From an uncultured virus (IMG/VR IMGVR_UViG_3300030376_002698) (lineage: Duplodnaviria > Heunggongvirae > Uroviricota > Caudoviricetes), in IMG/VR virus record IMGVR_UViG_3300030376_002698, positions 1 through 64,000 of that record: 64,000 nucleotides of DNA, one strand, 5' to 3'. Each line of letters begins with the position of its first letter. Within the stretch, counting starts at the first letter, position 1. Under the pieces are notes generated by a model. The model worked only from the letters and a program-made list of their open reading frames with translations. It was not told the origin of the DNA and made no database searches. Shown in pieces: positions 1 through 59,640 of the stretch. The position numbers and the translations under genes were made by a program.

Positions 1-1267
1 CATCAGCACTTGTATAAAATAATAGTCTACCTGGAGTATCATTTGCACCAGGTGTGCCATCTATTTGTCCTTCTATGGCAACTACGCTAGAATTAGCATC
101 AGTACCATCATCTGCAAACATTATTATGGAACCTACAGTGTCACCACTATTTATAATAGTAAATGCACCAGGACTTGTATTTCTTGATTTATAAAAATAA
201 AAAGCAGGTGGACTACTATCAGCCGAATGTTTTGAAACTAACATAGAAGCAGAAGAAGCAGAGTTACCTTTTATTTGAAATGCTGGAGTTTCGGCATTTG
301 GTAATGATGTTGTTCCAGGACTAGCATTTTTTTCTATCATTACACAATTATTACCACCATCAACAAATATCTGATGAGTATTACCATTAGATTCTACTCT
401 AAAGTCTACATCATCTGAATCTTCGTTGATAACAACTTCAGTATCTTTAATTGTAATTTGATCGTCATTACTAGAAGATTGATCATCAATACCAGGAAGT
501 GATACACCTGCATAAGTTTTTAATCTTGATGCTGTTACTTTACGGTTTGTACCTCCAGCACCATCATCAATAATAAATAGGTCTGCATCCACAATCGCAG
601 CTCCAATATCTGTCGCCCCATCAATATCTAATGTTGCAATATTAGTTGCACCTGCTGGTAAAGTAACTGCACTTGATACTTCTAATGTTGGAGTAACGAT
701 TGAACTACCTGATTCAGCAGTAAATGTATTGGCTGTGATTACAAAATCTTTAGCACCACCAACATAAATATCAATAGTATCATCAGTAGGAGCTTCAATG
801 TAAGTATCACCATCATCATCAAGGATTACTCGACCACCAAACGCAGCAGTATCTATACCTAATTCAACTTTGGTAGGAGTGCCAGAAGCTAAAGAGATAC
901 CTGTTAAGTTTACAGTCTGTGTAGTAGATGAGTGTGAAGATGAAGCAATAGTGCCTTCGACCACATTAGCACCACCATCAGTGATTCTAATCTTTCTACC
1001 TGCAAAGTATACACCTGAGATGTCAGATGATGAAGTTATAGTAATAGTATCAGCATCACTACGTGCTACTGTATATGTACCATCTCCGTCACCAAACTCA
1101 AAGTACCCGTCTCCAAGTTGTTCGTACATGTCTCGCATGTGTCCCATAAGCTCACGAGCAGCATTATTTACGTTACTCGGTGCCATGTTCTCTGCAAAGT
1201 TTACTGTCATGTTAGCAGTATTGTTACCCGCAGTTGAACTAAATTTACCTACGCCTGTTCCAGCCAT
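1..1267 (-). CDS. Tail fibre protein, module A (3' end truncated by window edge)
   Basis: Not in the ORF track. Manual translation from ATG 1267 (RBS AGGAG) gives MAGTGVGKFSSTAGNNTANM..., open to the edge; first 188 aa almost identical to 35764..37209. Confidence 0.85.
   Translation of the reverse strand, partial: MAGTGVGKFSSTAGNNTANMTVNFAENMAPSNVNNAARELMGHMRDMYEQLGDGYFEFGDGDGTYTVARSDADTITITSSSDISGVYFAGRKIRITDGGANVVEGTIASSSHSSTTQTVNLTGISLASGTPTKVELGIDTAAFGGRVILDDDGDTYIEAPTDDTIDIYVGGAKDFVITANTFTAESGSSIVTPTLEVSSAVTLPAGATNIATLDIDGATDIGAAIVDADLFIIDDGAGGTNRKVTASRLKTYAGVSLPGIDDQSSSNDDQITIKDTEVVINEDSDDVDFRVESNGNTHQIFVDGGNNCVMIEKNASPGTTSLPNAETPAFQIKGNSASSASMLVSKHSADSSPPAFYFYKSRNTSPGAFTIINSGDTVGSIIMFADDGTDANSSVVAIEGQIDGTPGANDTPGRLLFYTSAD
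704..1267. repeat. Near-identical copy 1 of tail-fibre 5' region (pairs with 36646..37209)
   Basis: Direct comparison at constant offset 35942; 6 aa differences in 188. Confidence 0.9.
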
Positions 1268-1301
1268 TGTTTTATTCTCCTATTTAATTTTCTTAGTTAT
1301 T

Positions 1302-3956
1302 TTATCTACTAGCTTGATATTCATCTCTGCTAGGGTTTATATTAATTGTGTTGAATCTTTGATTGTCTAAGGTATATAATCCTTGATTTTCTTCATCTGA
1401 TGGATAGCCCAAATTAAACAAATACCCATTTAGTTTTTTTGTTATAAGTTTATTTTCTACTTTATCCGTAGCAAATCTTGCATAATCTTTTGCTATATTT
1501 GGATCAAACATAGCCTCATAAAATAAAGCATCAGCTCTTTGTTTGCCTTTAGTTAAAATAAATCTACCAAATATATCACTTGCTATATATCTTACACTTG
1601 TTCTACCCGACTCAGCAGCGTAAAATCTTGACATAATAGATGGTATGCTCATACCCATTTGTTGGGTAGCTTCTTGCACTACACCAGGTGTTGTAGTTCC
1701 TATTCCTTGTGGCATAGGTGTTCTAGCATTTATAGCGTAAGCATCAGCAATAATGTTTAAATTATTTATATGGTCTGCACTATAAACAGAATTTAAAGAA
1801 TTCTTGTTTGATTCTAAAAATTGTTTGAATACTGCAGGGTTTAAAGCTGGATCATTTACTTCAAACATAATTTTAGCAACACTTCTGCGTAATGCTTCTT
1901 TTTCGTCTGCTGTTTTTAATCTAGCGTTAATTTGTTTCATTAATGCCGGTTGTTTTATAGCTGAAGTTAATAATTTATCAACATCGACTTCGCCCTTCAT
2001 TATTGGTGACTGCCCAAACATTAATTTTTTAGCTAACATATTGTCTTGTATTAATGCTTTACGGTTGTTAAGTTGTGCTACTCGGTTAGATACAAATGAA
2101 ATAGCTACTTGACTATCTGTTAATTTATTAAGTATAGTTGGAAATTGTTCTAAAACTTGTTTATTATTGTTAATGTATTTGTTTAATTTTTTGGGATCTA
2201 AAACATCATTTGCAAAGGCTGTTTTTCTAACTTTGTCTAATACCACAGATTCAAGTGCAAGGAGAGCATCTGCATCAATTTCGCCACTTGCAGTGTCGGT
2301 AAATACTTCTTTAAATTGTTTTGCAGATTGTACGTTTGTTAAAAATGCATCTGCTACTTTTTCATCAGCTATTTTGTATTCTTGAGTTTTGCCAAGTCTT
2401 TGTGAGCTATATGCTGCAGATTTTTCAAAACGATTTATAATTCTTTCTTTATAAGCATTTCTAAACATTTTGTATTTATTGCCTAATATTTCAACATTAT
2501 CGTCTATAAATGTATCAATATCTTTTTTCATCATTGATAAAGTTCTTATCTTTTTTGAACTTGGTGATGCAGTGCCTAAAGCATCAAGCAAATCATCACT
2601 TACTCTTTCACGTAAACCTTGTATATCTTTAAATGCAATACTAGATTGTTTAAAATTTTTTACTTCATTGTAAATACTAGGTCTATTAGCAACATCTGCA
2701 AATTTAGAATCAGGTGCATACATTTTAACAAAATTTGTTTTAAATTCTGCAAATGATACTGATGCGTTCATGTCAATGTTTAATTGCTTAACGTAATCAT
2801 TAAAATCTTGTTTAGCTATATTTCTTTTATCTAATAAAATATTTCTAAGTTTTTGTCCTGCTATAGCTGTTTCGGCTATTGGAAAATCTTTTGTTATATC
2901 GTCAAGTCTACCACTAGACTTAGCTAACTGTAAATTATTTATATTAGATAAATCATCAAACTTTTTAGTTATTGTGTTTATGACAAACGGAGCTTCATCT
3001 CCTGTAGTAGGAAAGTTTTTAGTTATGTTGCCTTCAATAGCTTTTGTATTTTTAATTTTACGTCTTACCAAAGCATCTAATTGTGATCCTGAAGCGTTGT
3101 TTTCTAATTCTTTTTGTGAAGCAATTAATTGTGGACTTCCACTTGCTTCTGCAGGAGAAGGAACAAAATCATCACCAATTTGATCTCTTACTTGTTGTGT
3201 TCTCCGTAATTGCTCTTGTGCAGCAGGTTCTCCATAAGCTGCAGCAAATCTATCAAAAGTTTCCTTTGTAGCTCTAGCTTCTTGTGCCTTAGTACCAAAA
3301 TATTCTTTAATCTTGTTACCTGCTCTAACAGCTATGGCCGTTGGAGTTTTTGCTAATACTGTAGTTGCAGCACCAGGTGTTAAGGCACCAACCAGTGGGA
3401 AAGTAATTTGTGCTAACTCACTATCAGGTCGTTCTTCTTCTGCAAGACCTTTACCAACGCCAAAACCAGTTGCGGCAGCAGTTTCAGCTACAGATGCGGC
3501 TAACGGACTTTTTCTAAATTGATCTAATAAAGATTTAACAACTGCTTCAGTGGTTGTTTTTGCACCTGTGTATAGTTTAGTTGTTGCTAAACCTAAAGCA
3601 CCACCTGTAATGGGTGTGTTTTTTGCAAGTTCAGATCCTGTTGTTCTAAGTATGCGTTCTGCACTCGTGGATGGTTCTCTAACTCCTTTGTTAAAAAAAT
3701 CAGCAAGACCGTTTACTTCATCATCTTCTATCATTCCTGCTTTAGCTAAACCTTTTGCAATGCTTTTAATACCTGCATCAGGAAAATAAAAGAGAGTTTC
3801 ATTAAAACCCGCTAAAAGTTGTTGCGTCAATCCTAAAGTAGAATTGTTATTACGCATATTTAAAATCTCTTTAGTTAAAACTTTAGCATCATCTACATTA
3901 CCAGCAGCGTCTGCTTTAATTAAACTATCTTCTAATTCTTTTAGAGTGTATGACAT
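1302..3956 (-). CDS. Large internal virion/DNA ejection protein (module A)
   Basis: 884 aa; last of three genes before the tail fibre, the podovirus ejection-protein position; Gly/Ala-rich hydrophobic N-terminal segments. Confidence 0.6.
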   Translation of the reverse strand: MSYTLKELEDSLIKADAAGNVDDAKVLTKEILNMRNNNSTLGLTQQLLAGFNETLFYFPDAGIKSIAKGLAKAGMIEDDEVNGLADFFNKGVREPSTSAERILRTTGSELAKNTPITGGALGLATTKLYTGAKTTTEAVVKSLLDQFRKSPLAASVAETAAATGFGVGKGLAEEERPDSELAQITFPLVGALTPGAATTVLAKTPTAIAVRAGNKIKEYFGTKAQEARATKETFDRFAAAYGEPAAQEQLRRTQQVRDQIGDDFVPSPAEASGSPQLIASQKELENNASGSQLDALVRRKIKNTKAIEGNITKNFPTTGDEAPFVINTITKKFDDLSNINNLQLAKSSGRLDDITKDFPIAETAIAGQKLRNILLDKRNIAKQDFNDYVKQLNIDMNASVSFAEFKTNFVKMYAPDSKFADVANRPSIYNEVKNFKQSSIAFKDIQGLRERVSDDLLDALGTASPSSKKIRTLSMMKKDIDTFIDDNVEILGNKYKMFRNAYKERIINRFEKSAAYSSQRLGKTQEYKIADEKVADAFLTNVQSAKQFKEVFTDTASGEIDADALLALESVVLDKVRKTAFANDVLDPKKLNKYINNNKQVLEQFPTILNKLTDSQVAISFVSNRVAQLNNRKALIQDNMLAKKLMFGQSPIMKGEVDVDKLLTSAIKQPALMKQINARLKTADEKEALRRSVAKIMFEVNDPALNPAVFKQFLESNKNSLNSVYSADHINNLNIIADAYAINARTPMPQGIGTTTPGVVQEATQQMGMSIPSIMSRFYAAESGRTSVRYIASDIFGRFILTKGKQRADALFYEAMFDPNIAKDYARFATDKVENKLITKKLNGYLFNLGYPSDEENQGLYTLDNQRFNTININPSRDEYQASR

Positions 3957-5017
3957 TATCTGTATTTATTTAATAGTTGATCTACAAATGGGTTTTGTTC
4001 TGTAGGATCTATAGGTATTTCGTATGGATCCGATGCTACGGCCTGTCCAGTTAATGCTGATTTTGCGTTATCTGACATAGTTTGTAAACCGTTATATAAA
4101 GTTGTTAATTGTATTTTTGCTTTTTGTGGATCTAAAAAGATTGCAGACTCATCAGGTAACATTTCTAATAATCTGTTTACTTCTGCTACAGGAAATTTAG
4201 GATTATCAGTTAATTGTTTTACAATTTTTTCTTTTACTAATTTATATTCCTGTGTTGCTTGTTCCACTTCAGGATTAATTAAATATTTATCAATAAAATC
4301 AGGAGTTATACCAGCAATATTACCACCTGCTCGTGCAAATTTATTACTAATGCCAAAAATATTGTCAGTTTTATCTATGGATCGTTTTAATTCAGGTAAA
4401 GCCTCGTCTATGTTAGATATTCTTGTTTTATGTTTTTCTAATTGTTTTTTGGTAAAATCTCCTGGCTTTAAATAAGATTCAATTACTATACTATCTTTAA
4501 TTCCTTTATCAGTTGCTGGTAGCATTTTTTCCTGTTGTTTTGTTGTAGCTGGTAAAGTTGTCTGCTGTTGTATAGTTTCTGTATTTTGTAATGGCCCACC
4601 TGAAGTTTCTATCTTTTGTGATATAGGATCAAACGTAGTAAAAGTTCTTGTATCAGGATTAAATTCTATTTGAAGATTGCCATCAACTATATCTGTAGCT
4701 TTATTAAGAGCTTCGGTGTCAGTTAAATTTGGATCAGTAGCCTGTAATCGAGTAACTAAACCTTTAATCTTAGATACTCTTGCAGTATCTTCTTCAGGTT
4801 CTAATGCTTTTCTAACTTGTGCAGATTGTAAAGCTCCACCAAATATTGCTTTACCTAGAGGTTGTCCTTGTGCAATAGCAAGACCAATGTTTACTCTTGG
4901 ATCACCTAACAATCCAGTAAGTGTGTTGCCACCTTGAGGGGCAGCAAAGAAACCACCTTCGTTTGATGAGAAAAACCCTCTAGGGTTTGTAAATGGGTTT
5001 GTAAATCCGTTTGCCAT
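3956..5017 (-). CDS. Internal virion/ejection protein (middle, module A)
   Basis: 353 aa; synteny; TAATG coupling; N-terminal motif DPRVNIGLAIAQG resembles NPAFIMGLSLMKG of 40554..41780. Confidence 0.55.
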   Translation of the reverse strand: MANGFTNPFTNPRGFFSSNEGGFFAAPQGGNTLTGLLGDPRVNIGLAIAQGQPLGKAIFGGALQSAQVRKALEPEEDTARVSKIKGLVTRLQATDPNLTDTEALNKATDIVDGNLQIEFNPDTRTFTTFDPISQKIETSGGPLQNTETIQQQTTLPATTKQQEKMLPATDKGIKDSIVIESYLKPGDFTKKQLEKHKTRISNIDEALPELKRSIDKTDNIFGISNKFARAGGNIAGITPDFIDKYLINPEVEQATQEYKLVKEKIVKQLTDNPKFPVAEVNRLLEMLPDESAIFLDPQKAKIQLTTLYNGLQTMSDNAKSALTGQAVASDPYEIPIDPTEQNPFVDQLLNKYR

Positions 5018-5026
5018 AATTATCTC

Positions 5027-5914
5027 CTATAGAAATCCTGTTCCGCCTAATATAGCACCTGCTATCGGCCCTGCAGGGCCTAAAACAGATGTTAAAGCAC
5101 TACCAGCTACAGCTCCACCAAAGGCACCGCCTAGTCCACCTGATTGAGTGCCTGGCCCAGTGTTTACACCTGTAGGGAAACCACTGGCAATTGGACTAAT
5201 AAGTCCAGCATATTGTTGTAATTGTTGCATTGGTGCTTGTTGACCAAATTGAAATCTTGCAATCTGATCTTGTAATTGTCTACGGGCTAAATCTTCATAA
5301 GCAGAACCTACGCCACCTAAGTCAGCGATTGCTCCTCGTCTACGCATATCTAAACCTTGTTGAATACCTGGTAATGCTCCTGCTGCTTGTAATTGTCGAC
5401 CAAAAGCAGACTCCATACCTGATTGCTCTCTACCTCTTTCTTGTGAGGCTAATTGTGCTGCAAGTGGTGCATAGGCTTGAGTAACACCTCTAGCTACCGC
5501 TTGTTGAGCCATAGGCGAGGTACCAGTTCTACCCATATTACCAAACTGTGATTGTACTGAACCTAGTACGTCTGAAGTTATGCCTTCACGAATACCTGAT
5601 AAATAGTCAGCTTGTGGAGTTAATTGACCATAAGATGATTGAGGACTTGCTGCAAACTGACCAAAGGTTTGTGCAGCTTGTGCTTGTAATGGAGAAGTTT
5701 GAGCTTGTTCTAAAGCTGCAGCTTGTTGTAAATTAAGTGCTTCTTGAGTTTGTTGAGCAAAAGGAACTACAGTGCTACCTGGAAAGAATGATCTTCCTAA
5801 ACCACTTCGGTAAATGTTTTGTGCTTCACCTAATATATCCTGCAAAAACGGTTCTGCAGGTGCGTAAGGCTCTGTTCTTTGTGTAGTTGTTTGGTTTCCA
5901 CCGCCACTTGACAT
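5027..5914 (-). CDS. Small ejection (DNA transfer) protein, Gln-rich with C-terminal glycine zipper
   Basis: MSSGGG start, Q-rich, GxxxG-rich C-terminus; homolog 41780..42727. Confidence 0.65.
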   Translation of the reverse strand: MSSGGGNQTTTQRTEPYAPAEPFLQDILGEAQNIYRSGLGRSFFPGSTVVPFAQQTQEALNLQQAAALEQAQTSPLQAQAAQTFGQFAASPQSSYGQLTPQADYLSGIREGITSDVLGSVQSQFGNMGRTGTSPMAQQAVARGVTQAYAPLAAQLASQERGREQSGMESAFGRQLQAAGALPGIQQGLDMRRRGAIADLGGVGSAYEDLARRQLQDQIARFQFGQQAPMQQLQQYAGLISPIASGFPTGVNTGPGTQSGGLGGAFGGAVAGSALTSVLGPAGPIAGAILGGTGFL

Positions 5915-5916
5915 AC

Positions 5917-6342
5917 TTAATTCTCCAATTTCTTTTCTAATAAATAATGGGTTGTCTTAAACCCTTGTTTGTTTAATATTTTTGACCAACCTGGTCTGGC
6001 ATAAGTTTCAAAGTGTGTACACTTATTACTTTTAGCCCATTTTTCTATATCGTGCAATCCATCTTGCCAATCTTTTCTATTCTTACCTGTACAGATAAAG
6101 ATATTAGCGACTTTACTATTTGGTCTTTCTATAATTCTAGTCACTACTACCGCTTTAAGTTTAGTTTTGGCTTCTTCATCCCATGCTAACCATAGCTGGT
6201 TATCACCACTTACACACGCCTCATATACATCTGAGGTATTAAAATGGTGTCCTGAATAAGCTAATGCCTTAGTAATTGACTCATCTACTAAGTTCCAAAC
6301 TGTCTCTATGTTTTCTTGTGGTATCTGTACAATCCCAATCAT
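5917..6342 (-). CDS. Virion-assembly GNAT-like protein
   Basis: Position just upstream of the ejection genes; WAK..C...E..ARPGW motif; homolog 42729..43148. Confidence 0.5.
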   Translation of the reverse strand: MIGIVQIPQENIETVWNLVDESITKALAYSGHHFNTSDVYEACVSGDNQLWLAWDEEAKTKLKAVVVTRIIERPNSKVANIFICTGKNRKDWQDGLHDIEKWAKSNKCTHFETYARPGWSKILNKQGFKTTHYLLEKKLEN

Positions 6343-6665
6343 GTAATTTCTAAATAACTACATATAACATGCAGATCATTTGCATTTTCAGCTTGTATTT
6401 TTAATTCTTCATCTGTATTCATAACTAAAGGATTAGTTAATAATTCAGTAGTTGTTTTAGCAGCTATATCTTTTTGTTTAAATAAACTAAATACATCATT
6501 ACCCGTATTAAGTAAAGTAACTGTGATTTCACAAGCATTACTGGCATCATCATTAGAAACAAGTATTGACTTTACTATACTTACAGTAGCTGCAGGTGAT
6601 GTATATAAAACTGTATCATTAGTTGTAGTTAAATCTACCTTTGAGTTTTTATAGGTATGTGCCAT
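6339..6665 (-). CDS. Conserved 108-aa beta-rich putative virion protein (copy A)
   Basis: 105/108 aa identical to 43145..43471. Confidence 0.7.
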   Translation of the reverse strand: MAHTYKNSKVDLTTTNDTVLYTSPAATVSIVKSILVSNDDASNACEITVTLLNTGNDVFSLFKQKDIAAKTTTELLTNPLVMNTDEELKIQAENANDLHVICSYLEIT

Positions 6666-6823
6666 TACTCAACACTTTCTTTAAAACCATTACTTAAATT
6701 TTTGTGAAACTCATCTAGAGCATTGTGTTCACAGTTAGCACATTTACAAGTTACACAGACACCACCATTACCACAATGACAACTATGTTCGCAATTCTTA
6801 CATTGATCTATGCTAGAAACCAT
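6665..6823 (-). CDS. Small Cys/His-rich (metallothionein-like) peptide, 52 aa
   Basis: Manual translation MVSSIDQCKNCEHSCHCGNGGVCVTCKCANCEH...; homolog 43471..43671. Confidence 0.7.
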   Translation of the reverse strand: MVSSIDQCKNCEHSCHCGNGGVCVTCKCANCEHNALDEFHKNLSNGFKESVE

Positions 6824-6954
6824 GATGCTACCTCTTGATTTTCATCGTTGTGATAACGAATTAATTGATTAGTAAGTTCTTCTACAATTAACTGAAACTC
6901 CTCAGTTGAGTCAATGTTTTGATAGATGTACTGTAGGTCTATTTTACTAGCCAT
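6808..6954 (-). CDS. Hypothetical protein, 48 aa
   Basis: Manual translation MASKIDLQY...ENQEVASWFLA; homolog 43656..43826. Confidence 0.7.
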   Translation of the reverse strand: MASKIDLQYIYQNIDSTEEFQLIVEELTNQLIRYHNDENQEVASWFLA

Positions 6955-7835
6955 TATCTACCACCCATAAAACCACGCCCTATGCCAGTTGATCTAGACG
7001 CATCATCCCTTGCTTTGTTTGTTCCAGCTCTTGACTCAGCTCTACCTGCTTCTGTACCTTGTCTTGATTTACTTGGATCTGATTTGGCACTAGTAATACC
7101 ACGTTGTGCATCAGTCATAGCTATTCTATCTAATTGTTCTTGTGATGCAGTTTTTGCAAATTCTTTTGCTATTTCTGCTCGTCTTTCATCTGCATTAGCA
7201 GTCATTGCTTTATTAATAGCTTCAGCGTTCAATCTTGAAAAATCTAATGCTGTTTGTGTACCATAAGTATTTTCAATTCTTTCGTAAATATCGTTGGGAT
7301 CATCTCCTATACCTAGTAAACCTTTTGCCACATTCATAGGTGTGTAACCAAGCAAACTATTTACAGTAGTTGCTAATTTAGCATCTAAGGAATTTGGATC
7401 AAGTTGTGTAACTGTTCCATCAGGATTAAATCTAAAAGCTCTACCACCAATAACTTCAGTTGAAACACCTGGCCCCATACGATCACGACCACCGCCTCCT
7501 CTTTCTTGCATAGTAGTAGTAGATACGTTAGATGGTATATTACCAGTCATAGGTATGTTACCATATTGGTTAAATGCACCTGGTGTGTAAGTACCCATGT
7601 TACCAAAGTTAAATCCTGCACCTGGTGCAAAAGCACCTGGTGTATATGTTTGTTGAGACAAATTTGGCACTTGAAACTCATTACCAAGAAATCTATTCTG
7701 TGCAATAGGTTGACCAAATGAAGTTGTTACATAGTCAGAAGCTAAATTAGGATTGTAGTTACCAAACAAGTTCGTGTTTTTTATTTGGTTGTTGAGTAAT
7801 CCTGCAGATTGTTGTAATTGTTCCAAAAATGTCAT
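6954..7835 (-). CDS. Hypothetical virion-associated low-complexity protein
   Basis: Coupled to the nozzle gene; shares TE.IG.RAFRF..DGT.T.LDP motif with 43826..44782. Confidence 0.55.
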   Translation of the reverse strand: MTFLEQLQQSAGLLNNQIKNTNLFGNYNPNLASDYVTTSFGQPIAQNRFLGNEFQVPNLSQQTYTPGAFAPGAGFNFGNMGTYTPGAFNQYGNIPMTGNIPSNVSTTTMQERGGGGRDRMGPGVSTEVIGGRAFRFNPDGTVTQLDPNSLDAKLATTVNSLLGYTPMNVAKGLLGIGDDPNDIYERIENTYGTQTALDFSRLNAEAINKAMTANADERRAEIAKEFAKTASQEQLDRIAMTDAQRGITSAKSDPSKSRQGTEAGRAESRAGTNKARDDASRSTGIGRGFMGGR

Positions 7836-9301
7836 TATCTATATCCTTCTTTGATTGCTTCTACGTCAATACCTTGTGCATCTGACCAAGTAGTACCTGC
7901 TGGTATTTGTAAGTTAAATTTAAAATATCTTGCTGATTTGTGAAACGGTATCGTTCCTGTTGAGTGCATACTTGCAGCACTAGTAGTTGTAGCAGAGTCA
8001 GCAACTCTATTACGAAAACTTACTGTACCTGTAGCAGAACTTGTATCTACAATAGGTCTAACGTGTGTTACTAATGATCGGTTCATAGGAAATACTTCTG
8101 TCTCGCCAGTTCCAATAGCAGCTTCTAGTGCATCTCCTTCAAATGAGCCTAATTTGTGATCTGTATCAAATACGCCTAAAGTTCGTAGACCACCAATAAA
8201 TGCTGGGCTATCTAAAGATACAGTAATTGCATCTATGTCGTTAGTGCCTGATGCTGGATAATCATCTAGCTCTTCTAATGTAAGACCAGGTGACAAGCTA
8301 TCAACAATAACTTCGTGATCTAATTCTACCAATGACCATCTATCACTTGCTATGTGGTATATAATAATTTTATCGTTTTGTGTACCTGAGTTGTTACCAG
8401 TAGCAGATGGATATGACCACATAACTAATTTATTTTCATGGTCATAAGAAGCTCTGACACGTTCTCTTAATGCAGTTTTTAAATCATTGTAGAAAAAACG
8501 GTCTACTTTGTTGGCACCAATAGGTTTTGATTGTGTACCATTAGTTACATAAAAACCATCTTCTGATAAATAGTACACAAGATTACCAACTTGAATTACG
8601 TTCTTACCTTGTACCGCACCTTTGTTTTCTTCTATACGTCTAAATGAGAACACTACATTACCACCACGATAGTCTACTCTAGTAATACGTGACTCTTGAA
8701 ATATCAAACCATACTGACCACCAGTAATACCAGTGATAACTCCACCTTCAGGCAACACTTCAGAATCAGCTTGGTTTACACCTGCAGTCCATGAAGTCGG
8801 ATCGTTAAAACTTGACCACTGTACTTTGTTCTGTGCAGTTGGTTGAAAACCTGTAACTAAAAAATTACCAATCACTGCAGCATGTCTAAAAGCTGGTGGT
8901 GATCCTGACAATGCAGCAAAATCAGATGATGAATCCAATGTGTACGCTTGTGGTGCATCATCACCATTAAAAGCTACTACAACTTCACCAAACCTTACAA
9001 AGTCCCAATACCCTTCATCAGAGTAACTAAATGTAGTGCCACCACTTTCATCAACAAAAGCATTTGCTGTTAGTTTGTATAATTTGGTAGCATCACCTGC
9101 AAAGATAGATACGACACCACTGTCTGATTTAAAGGCTTTGGCACCCTGACATCTTGCATCTAGTGCGTTACTTGAGGTAACTGAAATATTGTTAAATGGT
9201 CGATAACTGTTTACTGCAGGAAAAACATTCTTTGCCTCAGTAGCACCAGGATTCACATGATCGGGTAGGTCAGGTAGCCATTCTCCAAAAGGTACTTGCA
9301 T
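7835..9301 (-). CDS. Tail nozzle / tail tubular protein B-like (module A)
   Basis: 488 aa, FGEWLPD N-terminus, beta-rich, follows the adaptor; homolog 44782..46248. Confidence 0.7.
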   Translation of the reverse strand: MQVPFGEWLPDLPDHVNPGATEAKNVFPAVNSYRPFNNISVTSSNALDARCQGAKAFKSDSGVVSIFAGDATKLYKLTANAFVDESGGTTFSYSDEGYWDFVRFGEVVVAFNGDDAPQAYTLDSSSDFAALSGSPPAFRHAAVIGNFLVTGFQPTAQNKVQWSSFNDPTSWTAGVNQADSEVLPEGGVITGITGGQYGLIFQESRITRVDYRGGNVVFSFRRIEENKGAVQGKNVIQVGNLVYYLSEDGFYVTNGTQSKPIGANKVDRFFYNDLKTALRERVRASYDHENKLVMWSYPSATGNNSGTQNDKIIIYHIASDRWSLVELDHEVIVDSLSPGLTLEELDDYPASGTNDIDAITVSLDSPAFIGGLRTLGVFDTDHKLGSFEGDALEAAIGTGETEVFPMNRSLVTHVRPIVDTSSATGTVSFRNRVADSATTTSAASMHSTGTIPFHKSARYFKFNLQIPAGTTWSDAQGIDVEAIKEGYR

Positions 9302-9948: not shown

Positions 9949-10265
9949 TATAATCTTTTATCTCCTGTTCTAAAATACATATACTCATTACTGTTAACCA
10001 TTTCACGTACCAAACTTTTTTGTTGTTCGTTATCTAGCTTGTAAAAGTTAGAATGACCAAACCGTTCTTTAGTTTTTACTTTTAACGCAATTAGGGGTAT
10101 CTGTGCAATACGTTGAAACTCACCTTTTTGTGCTTCAGGTATATGATTACGAAATATCTTATTTTGTTCTAAGATTGGTGTAGTATCTTGCGAACTTTTA
10201 ACAACAAGTTTGCGTGTGCCTCTGTCGATGTGTACATCCTGATTAGGGTTGTAAATGTCATCCAT
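9948..10265 (-). CDS. Conserved phage hypothetical protein
   Basis: QD..PIL..N and RIAQIP motifs; homolog 46889..47206. Confidence 0.65.
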   Translation of the reverse strand: MDDIYNPNQDVHIDRGTRKLVVKSSQDTTPILEQNKIFRNHIPEAQKGEFQRIAQIPLIALKVKTKERFGHSNFYKLDNEQQKSLVREMVNSNEYMYFRTGDKRL

Positions 10266-10266
10266 G

Positions 10267-11675: not shown

Positions 11676-11687
11676 TTTTTTTCCTTA

Positions 11688-11718: not shown

Positions 11719-11726
11719 AATTAGTT

Positions 11727-12674: not shown

Positions 12675-12693
12675 GTGGCCTCCTTGTTATTAG

Positions 12694-50928: not shown

Positions 50929-51198
50929 CTATTTTAGGTTTTTAAGATCTTGCAGTTGTTTACTAGCAAGTTTGCCTGTATTCATGATTTCAGTCAGGTG
51001 GGATTTAACCTTATCTAACTGATGCCAGGCTACCCAGATAGCTGTTCTAGCTTCTGAATCTTTGTAAGAAGTTTGAACCATTTCTTTTTCATATTGAGCT
51101 TTTAAAGTAGTAAAGCTTTCTACAAATAGTTCATTTTCTAATATGGTATTGGCTCTTGAGCCTTTTTCTTGTTCTCTTATTAAATCGTTTTCATTCAT
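50929..51198 (-). CDS. Conserved small protein between portal and scaffold
   Basis: Homolog of 13728..14000. Confidence 0.7.
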   Translation of the reverse strand: MNENDLIREQEKGSRANTILENELFVESFTTLKAQYEKEMVQTSYKDSEARTAIWVAWHQLDKVKSHLTEIMNTGKLASKQLQDLKNLK

Positions 51199-53327
51199 CT
51201 AGAGTCATTAGGGTTAAAGAAAGTTTGTTGCTGTCTTTGCGTTTCTTCACCTATATCACCTAATTGTGGTGTTTGTCCATCACTTTTAGATGTCATAGCT
51301 TCACGTTTGATAGCATTAGAGTCAAATTGTACCTGATACTTAGCTTCTAACTCTTTTATTCTAGTCTCAAACTCTAATATCATTTGTTGTGTTTTGAGAT
51401 CTAGTTCTTTCTCTTTCACTTGCATATCAAGGATTTTACGCTGATTTTCTCCTTGTACTTGTGCAAGTGTAACCTTTTCAAATTCTGTAGGTGGTGGTGG
51501 TTGTGGAGGTGGCATTTGCGATGCACCTATAATAGGATCTGTAAAGTATGTTTCAACATTTTTCAGCCCTGCAGCTTCCACAAGTTTAGTTAATGTATTG
51601 TGTACATTTCTTAAATTAACCATTGGACCAGCAGCAGATTTTTGTAAGTTAATTGCTTGTAATTGTCTCTCCAATATGTTGTTAAGAATAACAAGTTCTT
51701 GTTCTTTACTACCTGTACCAAGTCCTACTTGTATATCAACATTACATCTATTTACCCATTCCATTGGCATCATAGTAACATACTGTTCATTAACACGAAT
51801 AATTTTTTCTTTAGTTTCATATTTAATGACAGTTTCTAAAAGTTTTTTGAATAACTCTTTGACACCTGTTTCAGCAAAAACTCTACAGATTAATTCTACT
51901 CTAAGCTGCGCTTGTGTTAAAATCTGATTTATACCTGATGCTGTTTTATTTAATGAATCAGCATCCATACCTTGTGAGTATCTAGTAATACCTGTACGTT
52001 GTTCTCTTACTACATCTAAGTATTCCAATAGAGGCATAGCTTGTTGATTAAGAGGTTGTGACTGTAATGGTTGTATAACAGACTGTGGTGGTTGTTTAGT
52101 TCTAACAATTCCACCTGGTCGGTTAGTCAATAAATCATCAATATTTACTTGACCATCCATAACTGCAATACGATTATTATTAGTAAGATACATATTATCT
52201 AATAGTTGTCGCATAATAGTAGATTTAACTAATTGTACATCCTCTACTAACTCAGATACAGAACGACCATAAAAACGGTGTGGCACTAGAATAGGTGTAA
52301 CACTTACAAAAGGTTGTCTGTCAAAAGGCACATTATCTAAAATTTTATATGAGCTGTCGCCTGCTACAGTTACCTTGCGTAATTCCGCAATTCCATCTTC
52401 ATCTTCATCAAGTTTGATATAGCATTCGTAAATAAGTATTTGTTCGTTTGCAGTATCAGATGCTGTATGACGATTTAATGAATTATAATCTAAATCTTCG
52501 TATCTTGCTGTACGTTCTTCACTGTATCTTTGATCATTATCAGTAGGTAAACTTTTTACTTCATCTACATCAAAACCCATTTCAACTAATTCAGAACGAG
52601 TAATATATTTTCTATGTGCTGTAAAATGTGCATCCTCAATAGTTTTAGCATTACGAGCTATTAAAAACTCTTCAGGTGGTACGTTCTCTATTCGTACTTG
52701 TCCTTTTTTATTCATTCTATTGACAACAACATCATGCATTTTACCGCTAGACTGTACATCAGATGGCATACCTTGAGCTTCAATATAGTCAGCAGCTTCT
52801 TTTAAAGCTTCTTCATCATCTATATCGTACTCAGTATGTTCTAATACTTTTACTTCAGGATCTGCTACTAACATAGCAAACTCATCATCAGTTAGTCCTG
52901 CATATGTAGATCTTTCTACATCTAATGAATCATCCCAATAGATCTTCATAATACCATTCTTTTGTAGAAGAGCATCTTTGAAAAAAGTATACATTAAAGT
53001 AAAGCCAGGATTATCTTTATAAAAGACGTGATTTAGATAATCAGTTGCTTGCTTTGCAGCAGCTTCATCACCTGGTTTGTTTCCAACACATTGTACTGCT
53101 TTAGGTGATGCAGTAAATGTTCGCATTATTGTAGGTAGTATAGACTCAATAGTATCAGCAACATCTGTACTAATTACTTGTGATCTACCATCTTGTTCAT
53201 TACCAAACGGTTCGCCAAAATAATATTCTAAAGACTTTGTTCTTTGTTCTGTTAGCTCACCACCAAGATACCCCATTGAGGTTTGTATCTCAGATGCTAT
53301 CAGAGCCTTTAATTTATATTCATCCAT
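51195..53327 (-). CDS. Portal protein (module B)
   Basis: Homolog of 13987..16200. Confidence 0.85.
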   Translation of the reverse strand: MDEYKLKALIASEIQTSMGYLGGELTEQRTKSLEYYFGEPFGNEQDGRSQVISTDVADTIESILPTIMRTFTASPKAVQCVGNKPGDEAAAKQATDYLNHVFYKDNPGFTLMYTFFKDALLQKNGIMKIYWDDSLDVERSTYAGLTDDEFAMLVADPEVKVLEHTEYDIDDEEALKEAADYIEAQGMPSDVQSSGKMHDVVVNRMNKKGQVRIENVPPEEFLIARNAKTIEDAHFTAHRKYITRSELVEMGFDVDEVKSLPTDNDQRYSEERTARYEDLDYNSLNRHTASDTANEQILIYECYIKLDEDEDGIAELRKVTVAGDSSYKILDNVPFDRQPFVSVTPILVPHRFYGRSVSELVEDVQLVKSTIMRQLLDNMYLTNNNRIAVMDGQVNIDDLLTNRPGGIVRTKQPPQSVIQPLQSQPLNQQAMPLLEYLDVVREQRTGITRYSQGMDADSLNKTASGINQILTQAQLRVELICRVFAETGVKELFKKLLETVIKYETKEKIIRVNEQYVTMMPMEWVNRCNVDIQVGLGTGSKEQELVILNNILERQLQAINLQKSAAGPMVNLRNVHNTLTKLVEAAGLKNVETYFTDPIIGASQMPPPQPPPPTEFEKVTLAQVQGENQRKILDMQVKEKELDLKTQQMILEFETRIKELEAKYQVQFDSNAIKREAMTSKSDGQTPQLGDIGEETQRQQQTFFNPNDSR

Positions 53328-53340
53328 TATATTATATACC

Positions 53341-53394
53341 TTATTTGTTTTTCGTTAATTTTTTAGCTTTAACTTTAACTAATTTACTAAACAT
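53341..53394 (-). CDS. Cationic micropeptide, 17 aa
   Basis: Manual translation MFSKLVKVKAKKLTKNK; start context resembles the MISK genes. Confidence 0.4.
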   Translation of the reverse strand: MFSKLVKVKAKKLTKNK

Positions 53395-53395
53395 A

Positions 53396-53644
53396 TTACT
53401 TTTTGGCCGAAATGAAATTGTTTACTCCTGCTTTTTTATAAACAGATCTTGCTGTTTTACTTGGACTTCCAACTACTGGTTTACCCCTCCTTTTTATACT
53501 TGCAGAAATAGCTTTAAGTTCAAATTGTGCAATTTTTTTAACTTCAGCAATATCACTTTTAGTTAATGTTTTTTTGTTTGCTAGCTTACTTAATCTAGCT
53601 TTTGCATGTTTTATATTTTTTAAATTTATAGCTTTACTAATCAT
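53396..53644 (-). CDS. Cationic MISK-type protein
   Basis: MISKA start, K-rich. Confidence 0.65.
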   Translation of the reverse strand: MISKAINLKNIKHAKARLSKLANKKTLTKSDIAEVKKIAQFELKAISASIKRRGKPVVGSPSKTARSVYKKAGVNNFISAKK

Positions 53645-53860
53645 ATTAACAGTTCCATTTCTTTAATTATTTTTTTGTTTTCTTTTTTTTAGTAGGCTTT
53701 GCTTTTTTTAGCATACTTTTTTTACTTGCAATGGCAGATCTAAGTTCTTTAACAGAAGAATAATTTTCTGGGTTAATTTTTCGCATACCTATACTTGATA
53801 ATTTTCTATTTATTGCACCTAAGTTTATACTTTTCATATTAGCAGTTCCATTTCTTTAAT
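53642..53860 (-). repeat. 26-bp direct repeat pair (53642..53667, 53835..53860)
   Basis: ATTAAAGAAATGGAACTG(C/T)TAATATG, one mismatch. Confidence 0.9.
53667..53837 (-). CDS. Cationic protein, 56 aa
   Basis: Manual translation MKSINLGAINRKLSS...KKAKPTKKKKTKK, between the 26-bp repeats. Confidence 0.6.
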   Translation of the reverse strand: MKSINLGAINRKLSSIGMRKINPENYSSVKELRSAIASKKSMLKKAKPTKKKKTKK

Positions 53861-54120
53861 GCTTTATTAATTCTTGAGTTTGGATCATTAGCAGTCTTTT
53901 TAGAAGTTAATCGTTTCTTCATGCCACCCATTCTTGCACAAAATGATTTTCTTCGTTTAGCAGCTTTAGATCCTTTTTTTAATTTACTTGGTTTTGTAGT
54001 TACAGCAGTCTTTAGTTTACTACCTGGATTAGCACGTCTGTACGATGCTACACCCTTTTTGTTTAATCCACCAGAAGAACTTTTACCTTCTTTACGTTGC
54101 CATGCAGGAGATTTTGCCAT
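53839..54120 (-). CDS. Conserved small basic phage protein (DUF6321-like)
   Basis: AWQRKEGK..GGLN, RRKSFCARM, KWNC motifs, recalled from memory. Confidence 0.7.
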   Translation of the reverse strand: MAKSPAWQRKEGKSSSGGLNKKGVASYRRANPGSKLKTAVTTKPSKLKKGSKAAKRRKSFCARMGGMKKRLTSKKTANDPNSRINKALKKWNC

Positions 54121-54395
54121 TATTTTTTTGTTTTCTTTTTATTTTGTACAGATCTACCTACTGCACCAGCAGTCGCTCCAAGACCTGTACCTACTACGCC
54201 TCCAACAAGTATACCAGGACCATATTTTTTAATTGTTGGCTTTGCTCTTCTACCATATCTTTTTGCCATTAATTTTGCAGTTTCTTTTTTGCCTATTAAT
54301 TTACTTGCTGATTTAGCTTGTTTTATATCTGTTTTTAATGTGGTTTTTACACCATGGAATGCACTTCTAGCTGCATTTACATATTTACTGATCAT
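54120..54395 (-). CDS. Cationic MISK-type protein with glycine zipper
   Basis: MISK start; GILVGGVVGTGLGATAGAVG. Confidence 0.65.
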   Translation of the reverse strand: MISKYVNAARSAFHGVKTTLKTDIKQAKSASKLIGKKETAKLMAKRYGRRAKPTIKKYGPGILVGGVVGTGLGATAGAVGRSVQNKKKTKK

Positions 54396-54409
54396 ATTAT
54401 ATACCTTTA

Positions 54410-54622
54410 TTATTTCTTTTTATTATCTTTTGTGCCTAATTTATAAGCACCATAAAGAAATCCAGCTTTTACAGGTATTCCAATTGCTGAACCTACTATC
54501 ATTGCTTTTGTCATAGGATCTGCTTTACTATATTTTCTACCTAATTTTTTTTTAACAATTTTAGATTTTCTACCTGTGTTTTTTAAATAATTAAAAGCTT
54601 TTTTTGATGCTTTACTGATCAT
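54410..54622 (-). CDS. Cationic MISK-type protein with hydrophobic segment
   Basis: MISKA start; AMIVGSAIGIPVKAGFLYG. Confidence 0.65.
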   Translation of the reverse strand: MISKASKKAFNYLKNTGRKSKIVKKKLGRKYSKADPMTKAMIVGSAIGIPVKAGFLYGAYKLGTKDNKKK

Positions 54623-54642
54623 ATTATATACCTCCTATTCCT

Positions 54643-54990
54643 TTAAAAAGGAACATATATTGTTTTTGTTGCTAATTTAAATTTAACTGATTGTTTTCTT
54701 TGAGGTCTTGACAGTAAATTTTCTTTTCTTTCTGACTTTTTTAGATCTTTATACTTAGATTTACTTAAGGGAAAAGTTCCCCATTTAGAAGAACCTTGTG
54801 ATTTAAATTTTTTATCCATGTATTTTCTTTGTGCTTTTAAACCTCTACGAGATCTATACAGAACATTTCTCACTGATGGCTGTCCATAATCGCCAGTTGT
54901 TTCAAATTGTGTTTTGTATCTCTTTAAACTTTTTGATTTACTTTTACCAAAAGCTTTTGTGCCTGCTCGAATAGCTGCTTTACTGATCAT
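54643..54990 (-). CDS. Cationic MISK-type protein
   Basis: MISKA start overlapping the terL stop. Confidence 0.65.
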   Translation of the reverse strand: MISKAAIRAGTKAFGKSKSKSLKRYKTQFETTGDYGQPSVRNVLYRSRRGLKAQRKYMDKKFKSQGSSKWGTFPLSKSKYKDLKKSERKENLLSRPQRKQSVKFKLATKTIYVPF

Positions 54991-56279
54991 ATTATATACC
55001 TTGTATCTACGTTAATATCTTTAGCCCAATCTGATCTTTCAGGCGCTTCGCCTACACACCCATATCTAAAACTGTCAGATCCGTGTGAAGCCCAGTTATG
55101 ATGGGGTTTATTTTTAAAGACTTGGTTCTTATCATCAAATACCTTTTTATATTGTTTGAGAGCTTCGATGCCTTGTTTGCATCTTATTCTATCAAACCAA
55201 CAATTAGGTAATGTGTTTCTTACGGATTCTATACCGTGATCTACTTCTAGTTTAGGAGCTACTTCAAAGTTTAATCCTAACTCTGCAGCTACTTCTAATC
55301 TAGATTTACCTGTGCCTAGTTCCCTAGTTACAATATCGTGTGGAGCTATATGTGCACCATAGTTATATGGCTTTTCATTTAACTTACTTACATAAAATGC
55401 TAATGATTCACCATTTGTTTCATAGTAATCAATTAGTCTTACTTCGTTATTAACTCGTTGTGCAAACCAAATTGCAGTAGAGTCACCAATACCTAAATCC
55501 CACCATGTTTCTACATCTACTGTAGGATCATATGGTACATCACCTATACGTTTTTCTTTTTCTGCTTGTTCCATTAAAGCACCATAATAAGCACCTTGTA
55601 CTGCAGCATTAAATGAACATTCATACTCCTGTTGAAATTGTGAGTCTGGCATAGTGCGTTGTGCATCTTCTAACTCCCAGTCAGGAATAACATTAGTGTC
55701 AGATGATCTATACATACAACCATACCAATCTCCACTATCAGTACGTTTTGCAAAATCAAATACTTCCCAGAACTGATTATGCCCCATTGGTGTTCCTATA
55801 AAGATAACAAACCCAAGTTTATCAGATACTGCAGGTCTTATAATCTCAGTCCAGGTACGAGGTGACATAAGAGCAAACTCATCTAATACTACTCCATCAA
55901 ACCCTAGTCCACGAAGTGCATCTGGATTGTCAGCACCAAATATCTGTATTCTTGATCCGTTATATAAATCTATTTTTAATTCTGTTTCGTTTCTACCACC
56001 ACCAAGTTCCATTAATGGTTCTGTATATTCTTTGAGATAGTCAAAAGCTACAGCCTTACCTTGTCGGTAGGTAGGTGCTATGTAAGCTAATCTAGCATTA
56101 TCTTTTTCAACAGCAGTAGCTACTAGTTTCCATATAGCTAGGCAGGTCTTACCAAAACGTCTATGACAAACAATAACATTAAATCTTTTTAAGTTTTGGA
56201 ATACTTCCCACTGATACTTACGAGGTGTAAACGGTATTGTTATTTCTTTTTGTTTTACTTCTTTTCTGGTGCGTGGCAT
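54987..56279 (-). CDS. terL: Terminase large subunit (module B)
   Basis: HRRFGKT, VVLDE, GTP, WDLG motifs; homolog of 16202..17461. Confidence 0.92.
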   Translation of the reverse strand: MPRTRKEVKQKEITIPFTPRKYQWEVFQNLKRFNVIVCHRRFGKTCLAIWKLVATAVEKDNARLAYIAPTYRQGKAVAFDYLKEYTEPLMELGGGRNETELKIDLYNGSRIQIFGADNPDALRGLGFDGVVLDEFALMSPRTWTEIIRPAVSDKLGFVIFIGTPMGHNQFWEVFDFAKRTDSGDWYGCMYRSSDTNVIPDWELEDAQRTMPDSQFQQEYECSFNAAVQGAYYGALMEQAEKEKRIGDVPYDPTVDVETWWDLGIGDSTAIWFAQRVNNEVRLIDYYETNGESLAFYVSKLNEKPYNYGAHIAPHDIVTRELGTGKSRLEVAAELGLNFEVAPKLEVDHGIESVRNTLPNCWFDRIRCKQGIEALKQYKKVFDDKNQVFKNKPHHNWASHGSDSFRYGCVGEAPERSDWAKDINVDTRYII

Positions 56280-58739: not shown

Positions 58740-59459
58740 TTACAGCACGATTGCTTTATTATTGGGATTATCCAGTACCGCAGGTGAAAACATGTTTAAA
58801 TTGCCTGCTATAGTCCTTCTCTCGCCTGGTCCTTCAAAAGGGTAGACACAGTGCTGACACCATGATGGAAAGAATATAATCTTACCAACCTCAGGTTTAA
58901 TGGTTTTGCATAGAGCTGGTCTTAGCTCTTCTAAACCCCTGATACTCGTTTGACCGAAATGAAACTGTAAGAAGCCATCATAAGCACCACCAGAGTTATA
59001 GAGATCAGTAGGCTTATAGTTATTATTATTGGCTATTTGCGGTGGTATCTTAGTCCAGGTAGTAAATGATATGCCCATAGGCGTATCAGTACCATGATCA
59101 TGCAAGGGGTTATAATCCCTCTCATAAGAGTGTACCGACCATAAGCTGTGGACATGAGGAATACGCTTCATGTCTCTGATACCAACATGTTGACCAAAAT
59201 GGTGTACATAAGTACCAGCAAGCTGCGCTACATATTTTGTAAAAGGTAATACCAATGGATCTCTATCATCCATTTTAAGTTGTTCGCCGTGCGATATCTG
59301 TCCGACCAGATTATCTGAAAAGTCCACCCCTGCAGGCTTTTTATGTTTAGCGTCTAGGTATTTATTCAGATCGTTGACCATACGCTCTTCCATTTGCACC
59401 TCCATCAGAAGTGCTACACTTACCTGCGATAATTTAATTTCTACTTCTTTATCCGCCAT
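58740..59459 (-). CDS. Putative 2OG-Fe(II) oxygenase (module B)
   Basis: Homolog of 19559..20239. Confidence 0.75.
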   Translation of the reverse strand: MADKEVEIKLSQVSVALLMEVQMEERMVNDLNKYLDAKHKKPAGVDFSDNLVGQISHGEQLKMDDRDPLVLPFTKYVAQLAGTYVHHFGQHVGIRDMKRIPHVHSLWSVHSYERDYNPLHDHGTDTPMGISFTTWTKIPPQIANNNNYKPTDLYNSGGAYDGFLQFHFGQTSIRGLEELRPALCKTIKPEVGKIIFFPSWCQHCVYPFEGPGERRTIAGNLNMFSPAVLDNPNNKAIVL

Positions 59460-59640
59460 ACCAACTTATTAAATCCTTTAAATCCTTTGTGTGCTTTATA
59501 AACCTCTTATCATCACCTTTAATTACTATAGCGATTTCTGGATTAGGAGCAACCTTATTCCCACTGAGCCTGGCATATAATTTTGCCTGATCTCTACCGA
59601 AGCTATCTTCCCCGAATATGACGTGTCCAACTCTAGGCAT
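59449..59640 (-). CDS. Hypothetical protein, 63 aa
   Basis: Start at MPRVGH after a G-rich RBS preferred over the longer ORF. Confidence 0.5.
   Translation of the reverse strand: MPRVGHVIFGEDSFGRDQAKLYARLSGNKVAPNPEIAIVIKGDDKRFIKHTKDLKDLISWYGG

Follow-up and report, generated by a model that had tools for sequence, protein, structure and literature searches.

Does a single marine phage carry two sets of virion-building genes, or have two genomes been written into one record? The question is raised by an uncultured virus record in IMG/VR (IMGVR_UViG_3300030376_002698; 73,595 nt, classed as linear), whose first 64 kb form the stretch analysed here, hereafter the window. The IMG/VR completeness score of this record is 100%. 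A preliminary description of the window had reported two diverged morphogenesis operons in tandem and had left two explanations standing: a double-virion genome or cointegrate, and a figure-eight misassembly of two phages of ~36-37 kb. A phage with a double complement of virion-building operons would have been a remarkable find; the evidence indicates that the record is not a single genome. The linkage is very probably an assembly chimera of two different phage genomes, which the assembler most likely brought together where their tail-fibre genes have a segment in common.

Self-BLAST of the contig and a repeat finder revealed two collinear, diverged units in the record, A of ~35.9 kb (35,942 nt) and B of ~37.0 kb (~37,040 nt), with matches at offsets of 35.9-39.2 kb. 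The PHROG series common to both lies on the minus strand and consists of 2OG-Fe(II) oxygenase, terS-like protein, terL, portal, scaffold, major head protein, virion structural and tail proteins, DNA ejection protein and tail fibre; A and B match the same PHROGs for terL, head, scaffold and portal. Self-BLAST and the PHROG scans thus bear out the two same-order, same-strand copies of the virion genes given in the preliminary description. The extent of the duplication had been understated, however, since the whole genome unit is doubled, including the early (plus-strand) and second late blocks. The structural genes of A and B are 66-80% identical at the nucleotide level (self-BLAST), and orthologues range from 20 to 97% amino acid identity (capsid 74%, portal 58%, terL 71%). 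The 44/60 identities first counted at the capsid N-termini were reproduced exactly. Only two segments are nearly identical, 704-1281 vs. 36646-37222 (92%) and 6337-6636 vs. 43143-43442 (97%), and the second corresponds to a 108-aa gene that is 97% identical in A and B amid neighbouring genes of 32-47%. All paired ORFs are open, in agreement with the earlier statement that the copies are intact apart from an N gap and the window edge. GC ranges from 0.26 to 0.40, with a minimum of 0.26-0.29 at 20-24 kb, where there is also a strand switch. An HNH gene inside early block A is on the minus strand. The second late block of B and fibre module Z come after early block B, outside the window. The features within the window are given in Table 1.

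Table 1. Features of units A and B and of the fibre region, in window coordinates
Feature	Position (nt)	Strand	Description and basis
Module X	1-703	-	Putative receptor-binding-type C-terminal part of truncated fibre gene (ORF 2-1267); PHROG tail fiber matches
R1a	704-1281	-	Conserved fibre N-terminal module, unit A copy; 100% identical to G006
Late operon A	1302-20239	-	Internal/ejection, tail and virion proteins, scaffold, transglycosylase-like, terS-like; PHROG scan
108-aa gene A	6339-6665 (repeat 6337-6671)	-	97% identical to B copy, 43143-43477
Major head protein A	11727-12674	-	PHROG scan
Portal A	13987-16200	-	PHROG scan
terL A	16202-17461	-	PHROG scan
2OG-Fe(II) oxygenase A	19559-20239	-	PHROG scan
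Early block A	20883-30391	+	DNA methyltransferases, exonuclease, Mom-like protein; PHROG scan
Second late block A	30692-35341	-	599-aa protein and metallo-phosphoesterase (34634-35341); PHROG scan
Module Y	35764-36645	-	C-terminal part of complete fibre gene 35764-37209; A-type homologue of Z
Junction segment	36477-36678		202 nt identical to G006; B-specific letters start only at 36679
R1b	36646-37222	-	Conserved fibre N-terminal module, unit B copy; holds A-to-B transition
Late operon B	37222-59808	-	1110-aa and 408-aa internal proteins, ejection, tail and virion proteins, terS-like; PHROG scan
Major head protein B	48909-49865	-	PHROG scan
Scaffold B	49892-50911	-	PHROG scan
10-N scaffold gap	50896-50905		Sole N run; inside B scaffold-protein gene
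Portal B	51195-53327	-	PHROG scan; four extra small ORFs listed between it and terL
terL B	54987-56279	-	PHROG scan
Oxygenase B	58740-59459	-	PHROG scan
Early block B, start	60540-64000	+	Continues to ~69.3 kb of record; ParB-like protein 62496-63275

Judged by sequence, A and B are each an entire genome of the HTVC106P pelagiphage type. Pelagibacter phage HTVC106P (MN698244.1), the isolate closest to them, has 36,945 nt and one gene set; its portal is 55% identical to portal A over 97% of the length, the best match among 613 phage records. Both units have the homologous portal and packaging genes, and each has ~37 kb (35.9 and 37.0 kb), one set of genes and the block order of the isolate. As in HTVC106P, with order compared from annotations only, there is an early block on one strand and a long opposite-strand block containing small genes, a lysin, large internal proteins, tail genes, head protein, portal and terL. 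DNA replication genes were not recognised in the units, a feature that is shared with HTVC106P (10.1101/2019.12.14.876532). A and B are distant from HTVC106P, as the portal indicates, and from each other. The record differs from HTVC106P and from all relatives checked, which have one unit each, in having two units in series.

The relatives give the same picture. The 124 distinct contigs considered came from the best 80 of 219 and the best 80 of 218 matches; among these listed matches the longest related contig has 38,673 nt and none (0/124) exceeds it. A search for other contigs with two capsid genes had been proposed as a check; all five near-full-length relatives examined have one capsid match (5/5), and four of the five, at 37.1-38.7 kb, have a CheckV completeness of 100%. 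The capsid tree that had also been proposed, here a quick tree, placed A in a clade of 27 rows (SH-aLRT 99) and B in a separate clade of 30 rows (SH-aLRT 100), so that both are well supported. The capsids of A and B have closer relatives elsewhere, 100% and 97% identical, and duplication in situ was therefore rejected.

In T7-like and other podoviruses the tail-fibre genes are modular: the N-terminal part is a conserved anchor, and the C-terminal receptor-binding modules can be exchanged. The fibres of this record appear to be built in the same way, with a conserved R1 followed by unrelated or diverged C-modules. There are three such C-terminal modules in the record, not two: X (1-703), Y (35764-36645) and Z (72632-73595, outside the window). 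X is cut by the left end of the scaffold and has no nucleotide match to Y or Z in self-BLAST, and Y and Z are 74-86% identical. R1 comprises ~190 aa, with 92% nucleotide identity between A and B and 82-85% in relatives, and its boundary with the C-modules, at 704/36646, is sharp. X-like modules adjoin R1 in the relatives G007-G009.

The join of A to B coincides with sequence present in both genomes. Positions 36646-36678, with which the 92% repeat R1 begins, are the same as 704-736, and the X-to-R1a and Y-to-R1b paths have just these 33 exact nucleotides in common; exact stretches that the two genomes have in common inside the scaffold reach at most 83 nt. The junction segment (36477-36678) is probably the crossover zone of the chimera. 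At its other end the scaffold re-enters sequence already traversed, the last 80 nt (73516-73595) being an exact copy of 36477-36556. No terminal overlap of the scaffold ends was found, and R1a is preceded by X, not Z; the ends therefore do not close as an A+B circle.

Two further contigs bear on the joins. G006, a 19,717-nt contig from a separate assembly, has the order Y, then R1a, then the body of A. It is 100% identical to Y over 35871-36432 (562 nt), after which there is a patch of 10 differences at 36433-36476; it has 0 mismatches to the A body over 704-2900 and 99.88% identity over 704-19642, and it departs from the window exactly left of 704. Because G006 joins Y to R1a and the A body, unit A closes as a 35,942-nt circle. 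A second contig, G011, has 28,709 nt, bears a different IMG/VR record number and is 99.98% identical to 20112-48888 of the window. It reads across the Y-to-R1b join and has the patch at 36433-36476 in the form specific to the window, so that this join has been produced twice. Either the recombinant is real, or one artefact may have arisen again in a sister sample from that community. Searches with exact words from the patch and from R1b found the Y-to-R1b join only in the record of the window and in G011, and these words had no other match. Unit B would close as Z to R1b, although a contig showing this closure was not found by the Z- and R1b-word searches. Neither the exact word specific to Z nor that of module X had a match in viral contigs or metagenome contigs.

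Runs holding the sequence of the record are marine metagenomes. This origin and the GC of 0.26-0.40 are indirect signs of a possible SAR11 (Pelagibacter) host. Depths are Logan values, the mean k-mer depth of each contig, and do not represent raw-read coverage. The best-matching run, X1, which is not established as the source sample, holds 0.91 of the sampled words and has the G006-type patch at 36433-36476, not that of the window. Among X1 contigs with 0 differences to the window, those on the A side had depths of 33.2, 38.1 and 33.6 and those on the B side 47.4, 48.3, 42.7, 46.4 and 45.4; the A-side contig of depth 33.6 has 6455 nt and covers 28332-34786. In the bin 43176-43842, which lies over the 97% repeat and has k-mers common to both units, the depth was 81.3, approximately that of A plus B. 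A coverage step had been named beforehand as evidence against a double genome, and such a step is seen in X1 (A 33-38, B 43-48). A cointegrate accompanied by extra free B would also give a depth step. In 16 runs of other studies the word shares were 0.25-0.43. These low shares were at first taken to mean that one side only was present, an explanation that was dropped, X5, X9 and X11 having both sides as 95-99% variants. Runs of other studies also have loose ends, at 36631 and 36645, which represent further modules joining R1. Joints flanked by 20-30 nt per side in X5 and X9 (e.g., 32059 to 38952) were left out as unreliable.

The formation of such a scaffold may be pictured as follows. Two HTVC106P-type, pelagiphage-like podoviruses would be present together in the seawater sampled, A with a circular or circularly permuted genome of ~35.9 kb and B with ~37.0 kb, and the conserved R1 of both would be joined to interchangeable C-modules X, Y and Z. 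The assembler would enter R1 from a variant fibre end, X, go once round A, return via Y into the common segment, exit on the B allele of R1 and circle B once. It would stop on re-entering the common segment already used, and the last 80 nt would for that reason repeat 36477-36556. In some older JGI metagenome pipelines contigs were merged by minimus2 with 80 nt as the smallest overlap, and an exact terminal repeat of 80 nt would be in keeping with such a merge. The join appears, then, to have been made by software and not to exist in the DNA. For k-mer collapse 33 exact common nucleotides are few, unless the G006-type haplotype, with 202 nt in common, was also in the sample. The scaffold resembles other chimeric or over-length metagenome contigs in its join at a conserved repeat, its end inside a repeat of its own interior, its N gap, the unequal depth on its two sides and the alternative join in another assembly. 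Unlike the usual chimeric contigs, it combines genomes that are ~66-80% identical and are not strains, its exact common stretch is short, and its join recurs in a second record.

That the Y-to-R1b join is real DNA is unlikely. It would then belong to a recombinant single-unit phage of ~37-39 kb, with A-type early and second-late genes and B-type ejection and tail genes, the product of an exchange where the fibre modules meet; even so, the 73.6-kb scaffold would be a walk carried too far through a graph of several mosaic genomes. G011, in which the join recurs at 99.98% identity over 28.7 kb, is of the size expected of an 80%-complete single unit, and the fibre boundary lends itself to exchange, with X-like, Y, Z and further modules all joining R1. 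The 97%-identical 108-aa gene among neighbours of 32-47% likewise points to real, recent exchange. It is similarly doubtful that two lineages co-infecting SAR11 recombine at the fibre N-module to give inter-lineage mosaics or transient heterodimeric replicative DNA in amounts large enough for assembly; if recombination were the true explanation, the 108-aa gene would be a second trace of ongoing exchange. Against a recombinant, X1 depth is lower on the side of the A early genes (33-38) than on that of the B ejection genes (43-48), and the join is known only from the window's record and G011. Gene combinations in relatives argue in the same direction. G001 has an A-clade capsid and keeps A-structural with A-like early genes, and G013 and G014 keep B-structural with B-early genes. 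G013, of 32.4 kb, is 88-93% identical to B, collinear with 36919-69304 and has no A-like unit; it aligns across the N gap without a large change in length.

Still less credible is the view that the whole scaffold is one molecule, whether a heterodimeric cointegrate or concatemer of co-infecting phages or a double genome that makes two particle types. Every gene of both units is intact, the junction is present in two records, and a hybrid fibre of Y and R1b is the product expected from one crossover at R1 between two circles. The reciprocal Z-to-R1a junction is absent, however, X being found before R1a, and the linear record has ends without overlap and thus shows no A+B closure. In addition, the two halves are unequal in depth in X1, and no two-unit member of the family was seen among the matches listed, where 0/124 related contigs exceed 38.7 kb. 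The nearest isolate has 36.9 kb. A headful-limited capsid of this size would not be expected to hold 74 kb of DNA, which counts further against a single molecule. Thus, of the two earlier interpretations, the double-virion genome or cointegrate is not supported, given the ends that do not close, the lengths of the listed relatives and the single gene set of the isolate, though the recurrence of the join in G011 leaves it a slight probability. The figure-eight misassembly is the one supported, by the closure of A upon itself in G006 and the depth step in X1. A third possibility, a tandem of related prophages in a host chromosome, has been assigned the slightest probability. In its favour, a preprint reports that 27 HTVC106P-related sequences from the environment carry a tyrosine integrase and att sequences identical to tRNA (10.1101/2019.12.14.876532). 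In the present case a six-frame search of all 73.6 kb of the record with integrase and resolvase profiles (PF00589, PF00239) gave no match, while control genomes matched, and there is no tRNA in the 64-kb window; the reading was rejected on these grounds. Host genes are likewise absent, both scaffold ends lie inside phage fibre genes, and the join likewise falls within such a gene and does not coincide with an att site. Lacking an integrase and host flanks, this reading is effectively refuted. Profile search and gene content agree here with the original observation that neither integrase nor host DNA separates the copies.

An assembly chimera remains the preferred explanation. If the two genomes were joined by the assembler, each virus would therefore build its own particle from its own morphogenesis operon. 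A record rated 100% complete yet consisting of two viruses should be split at ~704/36646 before taxonomy, host prediction or abundance mapping. R1 is common to many co-occurring HTVC106P-type pelagiphages, as may be seen in the bin 36506-37172, where the summed depth in runs of two other studies was 755 (X5) and 692 (X9), i.e., ~700-750 compared to tens elsewhere. The conserved anchor module of the tail fibre is a hub that drives real module swapping and misleads assemblers. Fibre modularity, as suggested by sequence comparison, would be the real biological feature behind the artefact and not the finding itself. Units A and B add two ordinary new members to a group of marine phages that is abundant and little characterised.

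Whole-record self-comparison, the PHROG gene series and the identities of paired proteins confirm that the virion gene set occurs twice, as the preliminary description had claimed, and extend the doubling beyond the virion operons to the whole genome unit. The full record (73,595 nt; IMG/VR class linear; CheckV completeness 100), of which the window is positions 1–64000, contains two collinear units, A and B, with match offsets of 35.9–39.2 kb and structural genes of 66–80% nucleotide identity. PHROG scans, which covered 44 ORFs in unit A and 60 in unit B, gave the same minus-strand series in both: tail fibre, two large proteins that match no family, DNA ejection protein, small proteins, virion structural and tail proteins, major head protein, scaffold, portal, terL, a terS-like protein and a 2OG-Fe(II) oxygenase. 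A plus-strand early block and then a second minus-strand block with a metallo-phosphoesterase follow in each. Protein pairs are 20–97% identical (capsid 74%, portal 58%, terL 71%), and the earlier count of 44 identical residues of 60 at the capsid N-terminus was reproduced. The record has a single run of N; a 10-N run is also present in G004, a family relative of 37.1 kb with CheckV completeness 100, and 10-N scaffolds seem to be usual for such assemblies.

Coordinates of units, modules and other features in the record
Feature	Position	Remark
Unit A	704–36645	about 35.9 kb
Unit B	36646 to record end plus about 90 nt	about 37.0 kb
R1a and R1b (near-identical segment 1)	704–1281; 36646–37222	N-terminal fibre module; 92% identical
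Near-identical segment 2	6337–6636; 43143–43442	97% identical
108-aa gene, A and B	6339–6665; 43145–43471	phrog_1276, unknown function
Module X	1–703	C-terminal fibre module, cut by left end of record
Module Y	35764–36645	C-terminal fibre module
Module Z	72632–73595	C-terminal fibre module, cut by right end of record
N run	50896–50905	10 N
Extra small ORFs, unit B	53328–54990	about 1.6 kb, separating portal from terL
ORFs of this insert	53396–53644; 53839–54120; 54120–54395; 54643–54990	second ORF phrog_727/4689
AT-rich 67-nt repeat pair	53609–53675; 53802–53868	75%
Transglycosylase/endolysin-like protein, unit A	17540–18085	181 aa, in the terL/terS-like gene interval
Lysozyme-like protein, unit B	70486–70941	151 aa, second late block
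Unrelated ORF at that position, unit A	33620–34051	143 aa
Early-block loci, unit A	23489–24646; 28194–28733; 29199–29699	
ParB-like protein, unit B	62496–63275	
Run X1, A side	26501–34786	depths 33.2, 38.1, 33.6; contigs with 0 differences to window
Run X1, B side	38098–46500	depths 47.4, 48.3, 42.7, 46.4, 45.4; contigs with 0 differences

The two units differ in gene content. Portal and terL adjoin in unit A (16200/16202), without the insert seen in unit B, at whose portal-side end the repeat pair lies next to the portal gene. The cell-wall hydrolases seem to differ in kind and place. The early modules are almost unrelated: that of A is rich in DNA modification (two DNA methyltransferase-like proteins and a Mom-like protein, with an exonuclease and an HNH gene), and that of B has, beside the ParB-like protein, ORFs mostly without a family match. 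The 108-aa protein is identical at 105 of 108 positions between A and B, and the products of its flanking genes at just 32–47%. The alignment of a B-like contig, G013, runs up to 43163 and resumes at 43452, on either side of this gene, with no listed alignment across it. The gene looks like a recent exchange between the two lineages. Contigs of X1, the best-matching sequencing run, branch at 43035 and 43143. The divergent late/early switch of A (20240–23490) has low GC (0.26–0.29) and few ORFs; it may have a regulatory or origin role and be variable, and may be a further place where the assembly is weak; G011, a contig from another record, shows an indel between 22746 and 23266, and no independent contig bridges 19642–20112, where G006 stops and G011 begins.

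Relatives in IMG/VR number 219 for capsid A and 218 for capsid B. The best 80 of each give 124 distinct contigs, 36 being common to both sets, and all of these are 38,673 nt or shorter. A single capsid match was found in all five long relatives checked, four of them of 37.1–38.7 kb with CheckV completeness 100 and the fifth of 33.4 kb with 87. In a quick IQ-TREE tree of 125 capsid rows, in which the very long branch of HTVC106P serves for drawing only, A belongs to a clade of 27 (SH-aLRT 99), separate from the clade of 30 (100) that includes B. The nearest capsids from other contigs are 100% (A) and 97% (B) identical. Duplication in situ is excluded by these separate clades and by the closer relatives that each capsid has elsewhere. 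G013 (32,354 nt), 88–93% identical to B, is collinear with 36919–69304 without an A-like unit, and G001 (37.2 kb) combines an A-clade capsid with A-like early genes; in other samples, A and B thus form coherent genome types.

The fibre gene is modular, with a conserved N-terminal module, R1, and three different C-terminal modules. Y and Z are homologous (74–86% at the nucleotide level); X has no nucleotide relation to either, and X-like modules adjoin R1 in three related contigs (G007–G009). This layout gives the record order X, R1a, A body, Y, R1b, B body, Z. The final 80 nt of the record are an exact copy of 36477–36556, so the scaffold stops on re-entering sequence already traversed, about 90 nt before the start of R1. 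A sharp module boundary lies at 36631–36678 (and 704–736). Runs X5 and X9 have contigs with R1 on the right and other, unrelated sequence on the left, which break off at 36631 and 36645, and depth summed over the R1 bin reaches 755 and 692, compared to tens elsewhere; R1 is thus a hub common to many related phages and a natural module boundary.

Independent contigs bear on the join itself. G006 (19,717 nt, another record) is 100% identical to Y over 35871–36432, differs at ten positions in 36433–36476, and is again identical over 36477–36678. It then runs on into R1a and the A body, with 0 mismatches over 704–2900 and 99.88% identity to 19642. Such a join would be expected if A closes on itself as a 35,942-nt genome, and it contradicts the left end of the window, where X precedes R1a.

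Twenty runs contain part of 35000–39000; the share of sampled words present is 0.88–0.91 in four runs of one study and 0.25–0.43 in the remaining 16. Logan contigs of X1, X5, X9 and X11 were compared over 26501–46500, the depths being per-contig means of k-mer depth. The preliminary description had named a coverage step as refuting a single molecule, and one is seen in X1, with A lower than B. The X1 bin over the 97% repeat (43176–43842) has a depth of 81.3, near the sum of A and B, and the partly shared Y/R1 zone lies at 55–59. X1 carries the G006-type patch at 36439–36451 and may not be the source sample. X5 and X9, from other studies, hold both sides as 95–99% variants with unrelated depths (X5, B-side contigs at 102–109 and A-side bins at 20–80; X9, about 0.7–2 over 30.5–33.2 kb).

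The record is very probably a figure-eight type chimera, in which an assembler or scaffolder would have joined two co-occurring HTVC106P-type phages at the conserved fibre module. Of the two readings first offered, misassembly is thus retained as the likeliest, and a genuine double-virion genome or cointegrate of about 74 kb is highly improbable: the record ends show no overlap, the Z-to-R1a junction reciprocal to a cointegrate is absent from the record, and the depths in X1 differ between the units, although that step would also fit a cointegrate with extra free B. Moreover, since related phages package about 37 kb, 74 kb would probably be too much for such a particle. The strongest argument against a pure artefact comes from G011 (28,709 nt), which is 99.98% identical to 20112–48888 and spans the Y-to-R1b join together with the patch (36433–36476) in the form that the window has; words specific to this patch and R1b occur in no IMG/VR contig besides G011 and the record. 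Either recombination really produced this join, or the same community, in a sister sample, gave rise to the same wrong path. A real join, which would mean that a single-unit mosaic exists and that the scaffold is still over-extended, is unlikely. Tandem prophages, the least probable reading, were rejected because PF00589 and PF00239 had no match in six frames of the full record (control genomes matched), no tRNA was found in the window, and both record ends lie inside fibre genes. With the chimera as the likeliest account, the occurrence of two virion operons on one sequence is no genuine feature of the biology.

Portal A has its best match among 50,697 phage records in Pelagibacter phage HTVC106P (97% of the protein aligned, at 55% identity), an isolate with a 36,945-nt genome, a single gene set and the same block layout as units A and B. 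A preprint presents it as a podovirus with no recognisable replication genes, grouping with 75 metagenomic sequences, and notes a tyrosine integrase in 27 environmental relatives (10.1101/2019.12.14.876532). Both units are ordinary new members of this known, abundant marine phage group. Many co-occurring phages share the conserved anchor module, and among them the receptor-binding modules are exchangeable.
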